Assembly: GCA_963705525.1 (NCBI GenBank) | Contig: CAVPJW010000004.1 | Location: 448,789-512,788, forward strand | Reading direction: 5' to 3' | Length of the DNA stretch: 64,000 nucleotides | Origin: an uncultured Acidobacteriota bacterium | GTDB lineage: Bacteria; Acidobacteriota; Vicinamibacteria; Vicinamibacterales; CAVPJW01 | Part shown: piece by piece, positions 42,797 through 46,263 of the stretch | Layout of the letters: every line of letters begins with the position of its first letter | Numbering within the stretch: the stretch's first letter is position 1 | Notes under the pieces: model-generated | Database searches by the model: none | The model's input: only the letters and a program-made list of their open reading frames with translations | Told to the model about the DNA's origin: nothing | Made by a program: the position numbers and the translations under genes

Positions 42797-44326
42797 ATGA
42801 ACGCGCAGTCGAACTCAGTTGACAGGATCAAGACCCTCGGAGGCCTGCGGACCGCGCTGGCCGATCCGACCGCCGGCCTTATCCGACATCGGTCGGTCAA
42901 GGAAGAAATCAGGCATAACCTGATTGCCAAGCTTCGCCTGAACGAGGCGCTCTTCCCCGGCATCATCGGCTATGACGAGAGTGTGATTCCGCAAATCACC
43001 AACGCGATCCTCTCGCGTCACAATTTCATCCTGCTGGGCCTTCGCGGACAGGCGAAAAGCCGGATTCTTCGCGGACTCGCCGATTTGCTCGACGATGTCG
43101 TCCCGGTCGTGCCGGGCTGCGAGATCAACGACGATCCGTTTCGTCCGATCTGTTCGGCCTGCCGTGCGCGCGTCGCGCGCGAAGGCGACAACACGCCCGT
43201 CGCGTGGCTTCCCCGCACCGCGCGCTACGTGGAAAAACTCGCCACGCCAGACGTCACGATCGCCGACATGGTCGGCGACATCGATCCGATCAAGGCCGCG
43301 CGATCGGGTCTCCAGCTCTCTGATGAGATGACGATGCACTACGGACTGCTGCCGCGGTCGAACCGGGGGATTTTCGCCATCAACGAGCTGCCGGATCTGG
43401 CCGGGAAGATCCAGGTGGGTCTCTTTAACATCCTGCAGGAAGGCGACATTCAGATTAAGGGATATCCGGTCAGGCTGCCCCTCGATGTGCTGCTCGTCTT
43501 TACCGCCAACCCGGAGGACTACACCGCGCGGGGCAAGATCATCACGCCGCTCAAGGACCGCATCGGATCGGAGATTCGGACGCACTATCCCGCAAGCCGC
43601 CAGCATGCGATGGACATCACGAAGCAGGAGGCATGGCTCGAGCGCGCGAGCGGCACCGAGGTGGCCGTGCCTCCTTACGTGCGGGAAGTCGTCGAGGAGA
43701 TCGCGTTCCAGGCGCGGGGAGACCGCAAGATCGACAAGCGATCGGGCGTCAGCCAGCGGCTAGCAATCACGTGTCTTGAGAACGTCGTGTCGAACGCCGA
43801 ACGCCGGGCGATCACCAACGGCGAAGGCTGCGCGGTGGCGCGCGTCACCGATGTGTACGCGGCACTGCCGTCAATCACCGGCAAGTTCGAGCTCGAGTAC
43901 GAGGGCGAATTGCGGGGAGCCGATGCGGTGGCCCGCGATCTCATTCGCGCGGCCGTCGCCAATGTCTTCTCGGAGCGGATGCAGACATCCGACACGAAGT
44001 CGATCGTGGAATGGTTCGATCTCGGCGGCTCCCTCAAGCTGTCCGACATGGCATCATCGGCCGACGTTCTGACCGAAGCGCGGAAAGTGCAGGGGCTCGT
44101 CGAGCTCGCCCGCCACCTCGGCGTGCCCTCGAACGCCGCCCCACCCATCGTGGCCGCCGCCGTGGATTTCGTGCTCGAAGGCCTGCACGCGGTGAAGAAG
44201 ATCAGCCGCAACGACGAACGCGGGTATCACGCGGCGGAGCCCCCACGCCGCACGAACCGGCAGACCGAGCCGGCGCTCGACGAAGGAATCCTTCTGCCGG
44301 GATCGAAGAAGAAGTACTACAACTGA
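42797..44326 (+). CDS. AAA+ ATPase, Mg-chelatase ChlI/BchI-like branch, with degenerate Walker motifs
   Basis: GLRGQAKS (Walker A-like) and RGIFAINELPDL (Walker B-like, NE instead of DE). 509 aa. Separated from the VWA gene by 1 nt. Confidence 0.78.
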   Translation: MNAQSNSVDRIKTLGGLRTALADPTAGLIRHRSVKEEIRHNLIAKLRLNEALFPGIIGYDESVIPQITNAILSRHNFILLGLRGQAKSRILRGLADLLDDVVPVVPGCEINDDPFRPICSACRARVAREGDNTPVAWLPRTARYVEKLATPDVTIADMVGDIDPIKAARSGLQLSDEMTMHYGLLPRSNRGIFAINELPDLAGKIQVGLFNILQEGDIQIKGYPVRLPLDVLLVFTANPEDYTARGKIITPLKDRIGSEIRTHYPASRQHAMDITKQEAWLERASGTEVAVPPYVREVVEEIAFQARGDRKIDKRSGVSQRLAITCLENVVSNAERRAITNGEGCAVARVTDVYAALPSITGKFELEYEGELRGADAVARDLIRAAVANVFSERMQTSDTKSIVEWFDLGGSLKLSDMASSADVLTEARKVQGLVELARHLGVPSNAAPPIVAAAVDFVLEGLHAVKKISRNDERGYHAAEPPRRTNRQTEPALDEGILLPGSKKKYYN

Positions 44327-44327
44327 G

Positions 44328-45623
44328 ATGAAGTACACGTACACGAAGTTCGTCGGCGATGATCTCTCCGATCTCGATCTCGAGGAACTCGTGTCGCGCC
44401 TGTCCGACCTCCTGCTGTCGAGCGGTTTCCGCAACCCTTACGGCTCATCGTCCGACGAGGATGAGGACGACCGGACCATTCAGGCGCTGCACGATGCGAT
44501 TCTCGAAGCGCTGATGAGCGGCGGATTGCTCTCGGACGAGACGATCGAAAAACTCCTCGGCGATCCCGCCGACGCCGACCAGTCGGGCACGAGATCCGCG
44601 CTCGAGGAGCTCATCCAGAAAATCATCGAGAAGCTCGAGACCGAAGGCTTCATTTCCACCGCGCCCGACCAGAGCGGCGAACGCACCCGCCGCCAGGGCG
44701 GCCACGGCTCCGAGCAGGACGAGGCGTCTCCGCCCGTGACCTTCGAAGTGACCGACAAGAGCCTGGACTTTCTGGGTTATCGCGCCCTGCGGGATTTGCT
44801 GGGCTCGCTGGGCAAGAGCAGCCACGGGCGGCACGATACGCGCGATCCCGCGACCGGCATCGAAGCGCTGGCGGCGCCCAAGCCGTACGAGTTCGGCGAC
44901 ACCCTCAATCTCGATCCAAGCAGCACGATCCTGAGCGCCGTCCGCCGAGCCTTGAGTGCGGGCCGGCCCATCGCAGGCAAGGACGGCAGCCTGGACGTGG
45001 ACTATCAGGACCTCATGGTCGCGCAGGGCGAGTATCAGAGCTCCTGCGCGACGGTGCTCATGCTCGACTGCAGTCACAGCATGATTCTCTACGGCGAGGA
45101 CCGGTTCACGCCGGCGAAGCGCGTGGCGCTGGCGCTCTCCAACCTGATCCGCCTTCAGTATCCGGGCGACGCGCTCAAGCTCGTGCTGTTTCACGATTCC
45201 GCGGAGGAAGTGCCGCTTCAGCAACTCGGTCGTGTGCGCGTCGGTCCCTACTACACGAATACGCGCGAGGGCCTGAGGCTGGCGCGGCGGCTGCTCGAAA
45301 AGCAGCGCAAGGACATGCGGCAGATCATCATGATCACCGACGGCAAGCCGTCGGCGCTCACACAGCCAGACGGCCGGATCTACAAGAACGCCTTCGGCCT
45401 CGATCCGTTCATCGTGGCTGAGACGATTGCGGAGGTTGGCGCCTGCCGCCGAAGCGGCATTCTCATCAACACGTTCATGCTGGCCCGCGACCACGATCTG
45501 GTCAGCTTCGTGCGCCGCGTCGCGCAGATCTGCCGCGGAAAGGCGTATTTCACGACGCCGTTCACGCTCGGGCAGTATGTGTTGATGGATTACATGGACA
45601 AGAAGACGCGAACGATTCACTGA
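44328..45623 (+). CDS. von Willebrand factor A (VWA) domain protein with acidic N-terminal region
   Basis: MIDAS-like DCSHSM ... ITDGKPS in the C-terminal half. N-terminal 150 aa rich in D/E/S. Confidence 0.85.
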   Translation: MKYTYTKFVGDDLSDLDLEELVSRLSDLLLSSGFRNPYGSSSDEDEDDRTIQALHDAILEALMSGGLLSDETIEKLLGDPADADQSGTRSALEELIQKIIEKLETEGFISTAPDQSGERTRRQGGHGSEQDEASPPVTFEVTDKSLDFLGYRALRDLLGSLGKSSHGRHDTRDPATGIEALAAPKPYEFGDTLNLDPSSTILSAVRRALSAGRPIAGKDGSLDVDYQDLMVAQGEYQSSCATVLMLDCSHSMILYGEDRFTPAKRVALALSNLIRLQYPGDALKLVLFHDSAEEVPLQQLGRVRVGPYYTNTREGLRLARRLLEKQRKDMRQIIMITDGKPSALTQPDGRIYKNAFGLDPFIVAETIAEVGACRRSGILINTFMLARDHDLVSFVRRVAQICRGKAYFTTPFTLGQYVLMDYMDKKTRTIH

Positions 45624-45630
45624 GTGGGTC

Positions 45631-46263
45631 ATGCTGCCGCCCGTTATCCCGATCTTCCCGCTGCCGAACGTGGTGCTCTTCCCCGGCGTCTTTCTGCCTC
45701 TTCACATCTTCGAGCCGCGCTATCGGGACATGGTGCGAGACGCGCTCACCGGCGATCGCGTGATTGGCATGGTGTTGCTTCGCCCGGAAGGGCTCCAGGA
45801 CTATGAAGGACGGCCGCCGGTCTACCCCATCGGATGCGCCGGCCTCATCACGCATGCAGAGCGGCTTCAGGATGGTCGCTTCAACATCATTCTGCGAGGG
45901 CTCGAAAAATTCCAGGTCGTTGGCGAGGAGCACGACCGGACGTACCGACGCGCACACGTCACGCCGCTGCCCGAGCCCGCATCGGACGCCGAGCGTCGCG
46001 GGATCCGAGACGAACGGCGAAAGCTCGAGGCCCTGCTGAAGCTCGCCACCGAGCACTCGGGCACCGATCCTCGCGTGCCGTCTTCAGTGGCCGACGAAGA
46101 CCTCGTCAACGCGCTTGCCCAGTACCTGGAACTGGAGCCTGTCGAGAAACAGGCGCTCCTCGAGCGCGAAGGACCGCTCGCGCGCTGTCAGTCGCTCGTC
46201 GAGCTGCTCGAGATGAAAGTGATGGCCGCCCGCAACCCGATGTCCCTCGATTGGGCGCACTAG
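45631..46263 (+). CDS. Lon N-terminal (LON substrate-binding) domain protein, stand-alone
   Basis: [30 protein letters not shown] is the hallmark start of the Lon N domain. No ATPase or protease domain follows. 7 nt after the VWA stop. Confidence 0.88.
   Translation: [210 protein letters not shown]

Follow-up and report, generated by a model that had tools for sequence, protein, structure and literature searches.

A window of 64,000 nucleotides from an uncultured soil Acidobacteriota bacterium of the Vicinamibacterales (assembly GCA_963705525.1, contig CAVPJW010000004.1, positions 448,789 to 512,788; all coordinates below are those of the window) contains three closely packed genes that, from their arrangement, are predicted to form one operon. 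They encode an AAA+ ATPase of the ChlI/BchI clade, a partner with a von Willebrand factor A (VWA) domain and a complete metal-ion-dependent adhesion site (MIDAS), and a stand-alone N-terminal domain of the Lon protease (hereafter LonN). We hold these three identities with high confidence. By homology, the AAA+/VWA pair would be a short form of the Rv0958/Rv0959-type pair, which is catalogued but uncharacterised. The family of the pair was therefore already known; what is new is the Lon N domain as third component of an AAA+/VWA system. A preliminary description of this DNA, made from its letters alone, had presented the module as self-contained: the layout of the trio stands, but its AAA+/VWA core is not a novelty in its own right, being of the widespread Rv0958/Rv0959 type (PF27098).

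The operon and its three products

In the list of open reading frames (ORFs), the three genes lie on the + strand at 42797-44326 (509 residues), 44328-45623 (431 residues) and 45631-46263 (210 residues), and all features of the module given below are on this strand. Gene 1 runs into gene 2 through the junction ...AAC TGA g ATG, with a spacer of 1 nt, and gene 2 into gene 3 through ...CAC TGA gtgggtc ATG, with a spacer of 7 nt, so that the operon structure first proposed for the module holds. No terminator-like site was found on the + strand within the three genes. Upstream, the 120 nt that separate gene 1 from a divergent neighbour (42677..42796) are the presumed promoter region of the operon, in which no match to the sigma-70 consensus was detected. 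Strong homologues and conserved synteny for all three proteins rule against a chance arrangement.

Gene 1 (42797..44326) encodes the 509-residue ATPase, which sequence and fold matches place in the ChlI/BchI clade and in the Rv0958-type family. Its best match in the PDB by sequence is ChlI (8osf, E 3.6e-12), with BchI also among the nearest. Its AlphaFold2 model (predicted local distance difference test, pLDDT, 88.8; predicted template modelling score 0.86) matches BchI (1g8p) best in a Foldseek search, followed by the AAA+ module of LonB, MCM, MoxR-type proteins (2r44, NorQ and RavA) and sigma-54 activators. A shared helix-2 insert groups the chelatase sub-clade with those of MoxR, YifB and dynein-midasin (eLife, PMC7159879). 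In the alignment, the protein shares with ChlI the segments PLGATEDR / ATPDVTIAD, NRG..hhh.E, NPE and LxDR, and extends beyond it by ~50 N-terminal residues, a helical C-terminal region of ~150 residues and a disordered tail. The ChlI-like character seen in the letters is hence borne out. Nevertheless, when the ATPase is sorted with profile models, as the preliminary description had proposed, all three candidate Pfam models stay below their cut-offs: Mg_chelatase with 13.9 bits (cut-off 20.3), Sigma54_activat with 18.2 bits (cut-off 20.2) and, from the MoxR class, AAA_5 with 20.9 bits (cut-off 22). AAA_3, of the same class, was not reported at all, and bpMoxR reached E 0.17. NCBIfam chelatase models gave 40-53 bits against cut-offs of 467-779, the BchI-ChlI model TIGR02030 scoring 42.8 bits against 466.95. 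No curated family among the Pfam and NCBIfam models scanned thus claims the protein. A motif search found no GAFTGA-like motif in it, and Pfam no helix-turn-helix domain.

Both Walker motifs had been called degenerate. The variants in question, GLRGQAKS and INELPDL, are indeed present, but the dead ATPase that the word implies is not what the alignments suggest. The Walker A variant GLRGQAKS (residues 81-88, 43037..43060) aligns with GDRGTGKS of ChlI, and the Walker B variant IFAINE (residues 192-197, 43370..43387), which opens into INELPDL (residues 195-201), aligns with ILYVDE, with Asn replacing the Asp of ChlI and the catalytic Glu retained. Among the fetched family sequences that hold the motif, the variant position of Walker A is Ala in 296 and Gly in 15, whereas Walker A reads GERGQGKT, the canonical form, in 79 of the 80 actinobacterial members; the Gly-to-Ala change thus appears limited to the acidobacterial branch. 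The Asn of Walker B, on the other hand, is found in 373/377 fetched family sequences with the motif and in 79/80 actinobacterial loci, and by these counts is a hallmark of the whole family. Residues K87, N196, E197, N238, R255 and R307 are invariant in the family alignments. N238 and R255 belong, in the alignment with ChlI, to the sensor-1 region from ANPEDY to PLKDRIG (43508..43561); both are conserved in 82/82 sequences of the tree alignment, and R255 pairs with the arginine-finger segment LLDRFG of ChlI. The strict conservation of the Walker Lys, of the Glu, of the Asn and of the arginines points to a protein that probably works in a nucleotide-dependent manner. Hydrolysis is probably altered, and turnover slow or switch-like, because Walker B reads Asn-Glu.

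Two further features mark the acidobacterial ATPases. An insert in the AAA+ core, GCEINDDPFRPICSAC (43118..43162), carries in the alignment a cysteine triad, C108-x10-C119-x2-C122. In the tree alignment, 76/82 sequences have all three cysteines; one acidobacterial subclade (loci L015-L019 of our set) shows S/S/G in place of the whole triad, and the AAA+ sequences of Micromonospora and P0271 lack it. The triad may bind a metal or act as a redox switch. The second feature is the C-terminal tail KKKYYN-COOH (residues 504-509, 44306..44323), which ends a disordered linker with pLDDT <70 from residue ~481. Tails of the form [KR]2-4-x-[YFLV]-N close the AAA+ protein in nearly all acidobacterial loci (L001-L080), as KKKYYN in Vicinamibacterales and as RRQ[YF]N, RRRPLN, KKQVN or KRSFN in other Acidobacteriota, whereas actinobacterial proteins end in ...T[VL]YG(x) or ...TYRT. 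From its composition, this basic-aromatic-Asn ending looks like a C-terminal docking tail.

Gene 2 (44328..45623) encodes the 431-residue VWA/MIDAS partner, of the Rv0959 type in a short form (Pfam VWA_2, E 2.6e-8). The acidic N-terminal half and the C-terminal VWA domain with DCSHSM...TDG residues that had been read from the sequence are both found. Residues 1-140 hold 32 Asp and Glu against 12 Lys and Arg, and include a poorly conserved linker of low pLDDT at residues 35-135 (44430..44732) with 24 acidic against 9 basic residues out of 101. The linker gives way to a conserved segment, FEVTDKSLDFLG...GRHDTR...YEFGDTLNLD (residues 139-200, 44742..44927), which is near-invariant in 69 acidobacterial sequences and which we infer to be the part common with Rv0959-type proteins, mapped to PF27098 by its position; PF27098 itself was not reported on this protein in our Pfam scan with a local copy. 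The VWA domain spans residues ~240-410 (45045..45557; VWA_2 over residues 242-340) and has a complete MIDAS, D247-x-S249-x-S251, T310/T312 and D338, with the motifs DCSHS (residues 247-251) and ITDG (residues 336-339). These MIDAS residues are invariant in the aligned homologues, and the domain as a whole nearly so. A low-confidence AlphaFold2 model (pLDDT 54, built on a shallow alignment of 75-95% identity and left out of fold searches) gives the domain a beta-alpha-beta secondary structure. Among the VWA homologues listed, 120/120 carry both PF13519 (VWA_2) and PF27098 'Rv0959_3rd'. The AAA-like N-terminal module of ChlD/BchD is not found in the protein, which shows no match to TIGR02031 or to AAA models.

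Gene 3 (45631..46263) encodes a 210-residue protein that consists, as first described, solely of the substrate-binding domain from the N terminus of Lon. It covers positions 2-199 of the 200 of PF02190 (128.9 bits, cut-off 28.7; E 3.1e-37), with the motif quoted in the preliminary description at its N terminus. In the PDB it matches the N domain of E. coli Lon (3ljc, E 5.8e-9), the stand-alone Bordetella protein BPP1347 (1zbo, E 1.6e-6), the N domain of Bacillus Lon and the Lon-like domain of cereblon. All 210 residues belong to the N domain, the polypeptide lacking both an AAA+ module and an S16 Ser-Lys protease domain, and models of full-length Lon score far below their cut-offs (TIGR00763, 23.5 against 608; PRK10787, 23.7 against 891). 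We also considered that LonN might replace, or derive from, the extra N-terminal region of long Rv0959-type proteins, and rejected this on an hhalign probability of 0.1%.

Conservation of the pair and of LonN

A scan of one genome per species yielded 80 related loci, 79 of them labelled Acidobacteriota and the remaining one (L040) a Dormiibacterota metagenome-assembled genome (MAG). The closest AAA+ relatives are encoded in Vicinamibacterales MAGs, with up to 75% identity. The VWA gene lies directly 3' of the AAA+ gene in almost all acidobacterial loci that offer enough sequence (77 loci), an exception being L082, in which two genes are inserted between them. Gene 2 can hence be regarded, on the evidence of synteny, as an obligate genomic partner of gene 1.

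We searched for LonN genes with an iterated profile in the 66 informative loci, that is, those with both genes and adequate flanks. A LonN gene is adjacent to the pair, on the same strand, in 46/66 loci. It occurs in two gene orders: the order of the window, AAA-VWA-LonN, is found in 18/66 loci with a median gap of 5.5 nt, and the order LonN-AAA-VWA, with LonN immediately upstream, in 28/66 loci with a median gap of 37 nt. Three upstream-type LonN genes were examined and all three contain a full PF02190 domain. In a tree of the AAA+ proteins built by neighbour joining, downstream LonN genes correspond to the Vicinamibacterales clade and upstream ones to several Terriglobia/Acidoferrum-type clades; loci without LonN are scattered among these, and some of them are sisters of loci that bear one. 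The adjacency persists down to ~60% AAA+ identity and 31-47% LonN identity, and the AAA+/VWA pair is the sole constant neighbour of LonN, as the genes on its other side vary. The synteny of the trio therefore speaks largely for the module: the AAA+ and VWA genes are together nearly everywhere, and the coincidental LonN adjacency that the preliminary description had allowed for is not what we observe. From these patterns, we take the presence of LonN beside the pair not to be coincidental.

Clustering of the neighbouring ORFs of the 80 loci revealed no generally conserved client gene. The neighbours found are lineage-specific only: a glycerophosphodiester phosphodiesterase (GDPD), a YpdA-like reductase, an exported redoxin, a threonine synthase and a sigma factor. 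At 16 Terriglobia-type loci the module is flanked by a gene for an exported AhpC/TSA (TlpA/AhpC-type) redoxin lipoprotein, and a YpdA-family putative bacillithiol-disulfide reductase is convergent downstream, mostly adjacent, in the window and in ~8 related loci (neighbour clusters 7 and 16 = thiol-redox). The recurrence of thiol-redox neighbours may be a coincidence. In ~10 Terriglobia-type loci, an S9 peptidase (cluster 12) lies 3' of the VWA gene.

The pair extends far beyond the Acidobacteriota. A search with the AAA+ protein gave at least 8000 candidates at 90% clustering, all of which matched, and 763 representatives at 50% clustering with E<=1e-30. A Micromonospora 'magnesium chelatase' (P0144) is 46% identical to it (E 5e-116), and its relatives in Tsukamurella, Nocardia, Nonomuraea and Thermomicrobium are 43-48% identical. 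Like the window protein, Rv0958-type AAA+ proteins have ~460-510 residues, a NELPDL Walker B and homology over their full length. The actinobacterial ones differ from it in the Walker A Gly, where the window protein has Ala, while the cysteine triad and the [KR]n-x-[YF]-N tail belong to the acidobacterial proteins. The Micromonospora AAA+ gene is followed by a gene for a 650-residue VWA protein with the domains Mb0984_helical, Rv0959_3rd and VWA_2, the residues 370-643 of which align with residues 141-423 of the window VWA protein (34% identity, E 2e-37, BLASTP). The same AAA-VWA order is thus present in Micromonospora, and also in Tsukamurella and on the megaplasmid of Thermomicrobium roseum. 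All 80 actinobacterial-type metagenome loci have the AAA+ gene, and a VWA gene of ~650-700 residues comes next wherever the sequence allows it to be seen (~60 loci). Rv0959-type partners accordingly have ~650-700 residues, whereas the window VWA protein has 431, with ~140 residues before the shared segment, and the N-terminal helical region of the long forms (PF27532, Mb0984_helical) is not recognisable in it (hhalign probability 15%). The Tsukamurella pair sits just downstream of purN-purH, which we take to be the neighbourhood of Rv0956-Rv0959 in M. tuberculosis as well. The relationship with Rv0958/Rv0959 was traced in this way, via actinobacterial relatives and not via the M. tuberculosis sequences themselves.

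One relative stands apart from the rest. At L085 (JGI contig Ga0394879_0000009, 7001-8395), the 40% identical protein P0510 has a canonical Walker B, DELPDL, and its gene sits alone after an NtrC-type regulator, with no adjacent VWA gene; P0510 may belong to a distinct subfamily. Two other loci, L086 and L087, are uninformative, as they appear to lie on long-read contigs with frameshifts.

The names borne by these proteins in databases are diverse. Relatives (L168, L169; P0003 etc.; P0390 etc.) are called 'magnesium chelatase subunit I' or 'Ca-activated chloride channel family protein', and RefSeq names the AAA+ proteins of Tsukamurella and Thermomicrobium 'sigma 54-interacting transcriptional regulator', with a Gene Ontology term for transcription regulation. 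Rv0958 itself is labelled 'possible magnesium chelatase'. In view of the sequence comparisons, the chelatase, sigma-54 and chloride-channel names are probably misnomers, and the family is probably misnamed.

The preliminary description knew of no characterised function for the trio, and a full-text search of the literature agrees: we found no functional study of the trio, of stand-alone LonN, of Rv0958/Rv0959, of MSMEG_5512/5513, of COG4867 or of PF27098, and no publication linking a Lon N domain with the AAA+/VWA pair. It had also considered that the pair might map to a system characterised already; it does map to a catalogued family, but one for which no functional study was found. Rv0958 and Rv0959 are mentioned in omics tables only. 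The M. smegmatis orthologue of Rv0958, MSMEG_5512, is a protein of unknown function that co-purified with RNA polymerase after cross-linking, and association with DNA was absent when examined (PMC7092591). It is also among the top recurrent interactors of ClpC1, and had been flagged before by ClpC1/ClpP2 knock-down and two-hybrid studies (PMC10433963).

Surroundings of the operon in the window

The operon is bracketed, as had been noted, by a divergent gene upstream and a convergent gene downstream. The former (41858-42676, - strand) encodes a GDPD (Pfam, E 1.8e-43) and is kept in Vicinamibacterales-type loci, not elsewhere, which from the comparison of loci is most likely plain shared synteny. 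The latter (46260-47384, - strand) encodes a YpdA-family flavoprotein (TIGR04018, 398.5 bits, cut-off 339.9) and overlaps the end of the LonN gene, stop codon included, by 4 nt. The G+C content is ~64% and uniform over the region, and its long antisense ORFs are unsupported, a usual by-product of high G+C. The wider window is of housekeeping character, with pyruvate dehydrogenase E1/E2-like proteins, aldehyde dehydrogenases, a dihydroxy-acid dehydratase and S9 peptidases. Two of the S9 genes, of the prolyl-oligopeptidase type with PD40 or beta-propeller parts, are at 46488-49568 (+ strand), just past the YpdA gene, and at 12327-14045 (- strand). A single ORF of 534 residues at 56564-58168 (- strand) combines Pfam Thiolase_C (residues 100-204) with Iso_dh (residues 238-428); it may result from an unusual fusion, from a frameshift or from faulty ORF calling.

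Possible functions of the module

The two-gene logic of an AAA+ protein with a VWA/MIDAS partner is that of MoxR-class pairs (NorQ/NorD, CbbQ/CbbO, RavA/ViaA, CoxD/CoxE), and an acidic stretch that leads into a VWA domain with MIDAS, as in gene 2, is found in ChlD/BchD and CobT. The adjacent VWA gene with an intact MIDAS and the chelatase-clade ATPase thus uphold the chelatase-or-MoxR logic that had been proposed from the letters. The window AAA+ protein matches 2r44, NorQ and RavA by structure, not MoxR by sequence. In contrast to MoxR-class pairs, the window module has no adjacent client gene, and its third component is a Lon N domain, for which we found no description in the literature on MoxR-class systems. 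By analogy, a MoxR-type AAA+/VWA scheme is likely to be its mode of action. In the general scheme for AAA+/VWA systems, a substrate peptide is captured by the vWA domain (PMC7159879).

We tentatively favour the reading, which we would put a little short of an even chance, that the operon encodes a cytoplasmic, ATP-driven and non-proteolytic protein-remodelling machine with LonN as client receptor. Its mechanism is drawn by analogy with ChlI/ChlD, CobS/CobT, NorQ/NorD, CbbQ/CbbO and RavA/ViaA. The AAA+ protein would form a ring and supply mechanical work, the VWA protein would dock on this ring and grip an acidic residue or a peptide of the client through its MIDAS, and nucleotide turnover would drive a conformational change in the client. 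In Lon, the N domain binds exposed degrons and unfolded segments in cis, and we propose for this reason that LonN would serve in trans as a second module for recognising or tethering clients, which would broaden or redirect the choice of clients toward damaged or unfolded proteins. The handover machine that borrows the recognition domain of Lon, as suggested in the preliminary description, would be of this kind. A general client, or one encoded elsewhere, is more likely than a dedicated neighbouring enzyme, because ~160 loci of three phyla share no client gene beside the module. In support of this reading we can cite the coupling of AAA+ and VWA genes across the three phyla and the linkage of LonN in two orders while the other neighbours vary. 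The ClpC1 interaction data would be compatible with a role in proteostasis, but they could equally mean that the AAA+ protein is a substrate of ClpC1.

Two known systems invite comparison. LonA has its N domain in common with gene 3, which aligns with the N domains of E. coli and Bacillus Lon and with BPP1347, and the order of its domains is mirrored by the LonN-then-AAA+ gene order of Terriglobia-type loci; however, the window AAA+ protein is of the chelatase clade and not of the AAA+ clade of Lon, and no protease is present in the module. The PrkA(YeaG)-YeaH-YcgB(SpoVR) triad of stress and sporulation likewise unites an AAA+ protein with a VWA-like partner and one more small protein, all encoded in a conserved and poorly understood operon. 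The likeness is architectural only: no SpoVR-like gene is present in the window module, and a faint or sub-threshold AAA_PrkA Pfam match appears on two relatives but not on the window AAA+ protein.

A bolder version of the remodelling machine, and one that we consider rather doubtful, is a Lon without its protease, built in trans: LonN would dock on the chelatase-clade ring with its VWA partner and act as a general receptor for damaged or unfolded proteins in non-proteolytic quality control. In such an assembly the cysteine triad might be a redox switch and the basic-aromatic tail a docking element.

Among the alternatives, the one that survives best, although we judge it unlikely, is that the pair is a dedicated system for metal-cofactor insertion or maturation of one enzyme, with LonN as a client-specific adaptor. 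The nearest characterised relatives of the AAA+ protein, by sequence and by fold, are indeed the chelatase ATPases ChlI/BchI, the acidic linker with its MIDAS VWA domain resembles the C-terminal half of ChlD, the clade-specific cysteine triad could be a metal site, and a weak match to the cobaltochelatase model TIGR02442 spans both proteins. But the scores are at least an order of magnitude under the curated cut-offs (53 against 779 and 43 against 467 bits), and the VWA protein consists of an acidic linker and a VWA domain without the AAA-like module that ChlD/BchD carry. A scan of ten further large ORFs (>=450 residues) of the window revealed no ChlH/BchH/CobN-type subunit, and the recurrent neighbour genes examined at related loci included no ChlH/CobN-type gene. 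True membership in the Mg-chelatases was rejected on these scores and on this absence of a CobN/ChlH-type gene. The norQD, cbbQO and coxDE genes sit beside the genes of their clients, whereas none is conserved beside this pair.

A role in proteolysis is less probable still. Here the module would feed or control a separate protease, either Lon, through mixing of LonN with its N-domain assemblies, or ClpC/ClpP. LonN corresponds to the part of Lon that oligomerises and binds substrates (Pfam description), and the AAA+ orthologue of mycobacteria has repeatedly been recovered together with ClpC1. The conserved basic-aromatic tail KKKYYN, too, would fit such a role, being similar to the C-terminal docking tails of proteasomal ATPases. 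Against these points, the AAA+ protein may be a mere substrate of ClpC1, the neighbourhood contains no conserved protease gene, and the tail varies from clade to clade and does not strictly match the HbYX type.

To the same low degree we would credit an inherited but functionally uncoupled synteny, in which the pair acts alone and LonN is an independent small protein. The pair is complete without LonN at the actinobacterial loci, in Thermomicrobium and at part of the acidobacterial loci, and the LonN states track clades of the AAA+ tree. The upstream GDPD gene is likewise conserved within Vicinamibacterales, so that some of the conservation of this neighbourhood must be plain shared descent. 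On the other side, LonN shares the strand of the pair at short spacing in two alternative positions, 5' of the AAA+ gene or 3' of the VWA gene, with the pair as its only constant neighbour, and the adjacency holds to the low identities given above.

Several of our results weigh against the remodelling machine with LonN as its receptor. LonN is beside the pair in none of the 80 actinobacterial loci, and thus absent from loci of the Rv0958/Rv0959 type while attached to the window operon; it is also missing at the Thermomicrobium locus examined. Among the acidobacterial loci, no LonN gene lies within 1.5-6 kb in 20/66, and the LonN-less L047 and L053 are close relatives of the LonN-bearing L056 and L057. 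With LonN missing in these 20/66 acidobacterial and 80/80 actinobacterial loci, the pair, as judged from gene content, clearly works without a LonN encoded in cis. Since it occurs without LonN in Actinomycetota and in Thermomicrobium, LonN is best described, on this distribution, as a recurrent, Acidobacteria-specific accessory that is dispensable in cis, and not as a defining third subunit. The independent LonN events also appear to be few, because the two gene orders map to few large clades. Moreover, the Asn-for-Asp replacement in Walker B could mean very weak hydrolysis, and the model of the VWA protein, at its pLDDT, is too poor for its N-terminal half to be examined. Finally, the orthology with Rv0958/Rv0959 is indirect, as it rests on Pfam names, on the Micromonospora and Tsukamurella homologues and on purN-purH.

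Two last readings, that the trio is a MoxR-vWA ternary system of anti-phage defence or conflict and that its ATPase is a transcriptional activator working with sigma-54, are hardly credible and were rejected: such conflict systems are built around an AAA+/vWA dyad and a third component (PMC7159879), but the three proteins gave 0 matches in PADLOC, have no relatives on viral contigs and no effector domain, and lie in a chromosomal housekeeping context; and the RefSeq name of the relatives is opposed by the sub-threshold Sigma54_activat score, by the absence of GAFTGA and of a DNA-binding or helix-turn-helix domain, and by MSMEG_5512, for which association with DNA was not seen (PMC7092591).

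A large and strongly conserved AAA+/VWA family therefore carries names that fit none of the present evidence. This family is medically adjacent, as it includes Rv0958 and Rv0959 of M. tuberculosis. LonN, found beside the pair in two orders, is a genomic clue to its function, the other hint found being the ClpC1 interaction data from M. smegmatis, and its recurrence there points to protein recognition or quality control rather than to tetrapyrrole chemistry. If the remodelling machine that we favour is real, the operon would be a new three-component variant of AAA+/VWA remodelling systems and would give a role to stand-alone Lon N-domain proteins. If its bolder version, the Lon without protease built in trans, were to hold, it would provide a first functional handle on the mycobacterial Rv0958/Rv0959 pair and would reveal a previously unrecognised quality-control machine.

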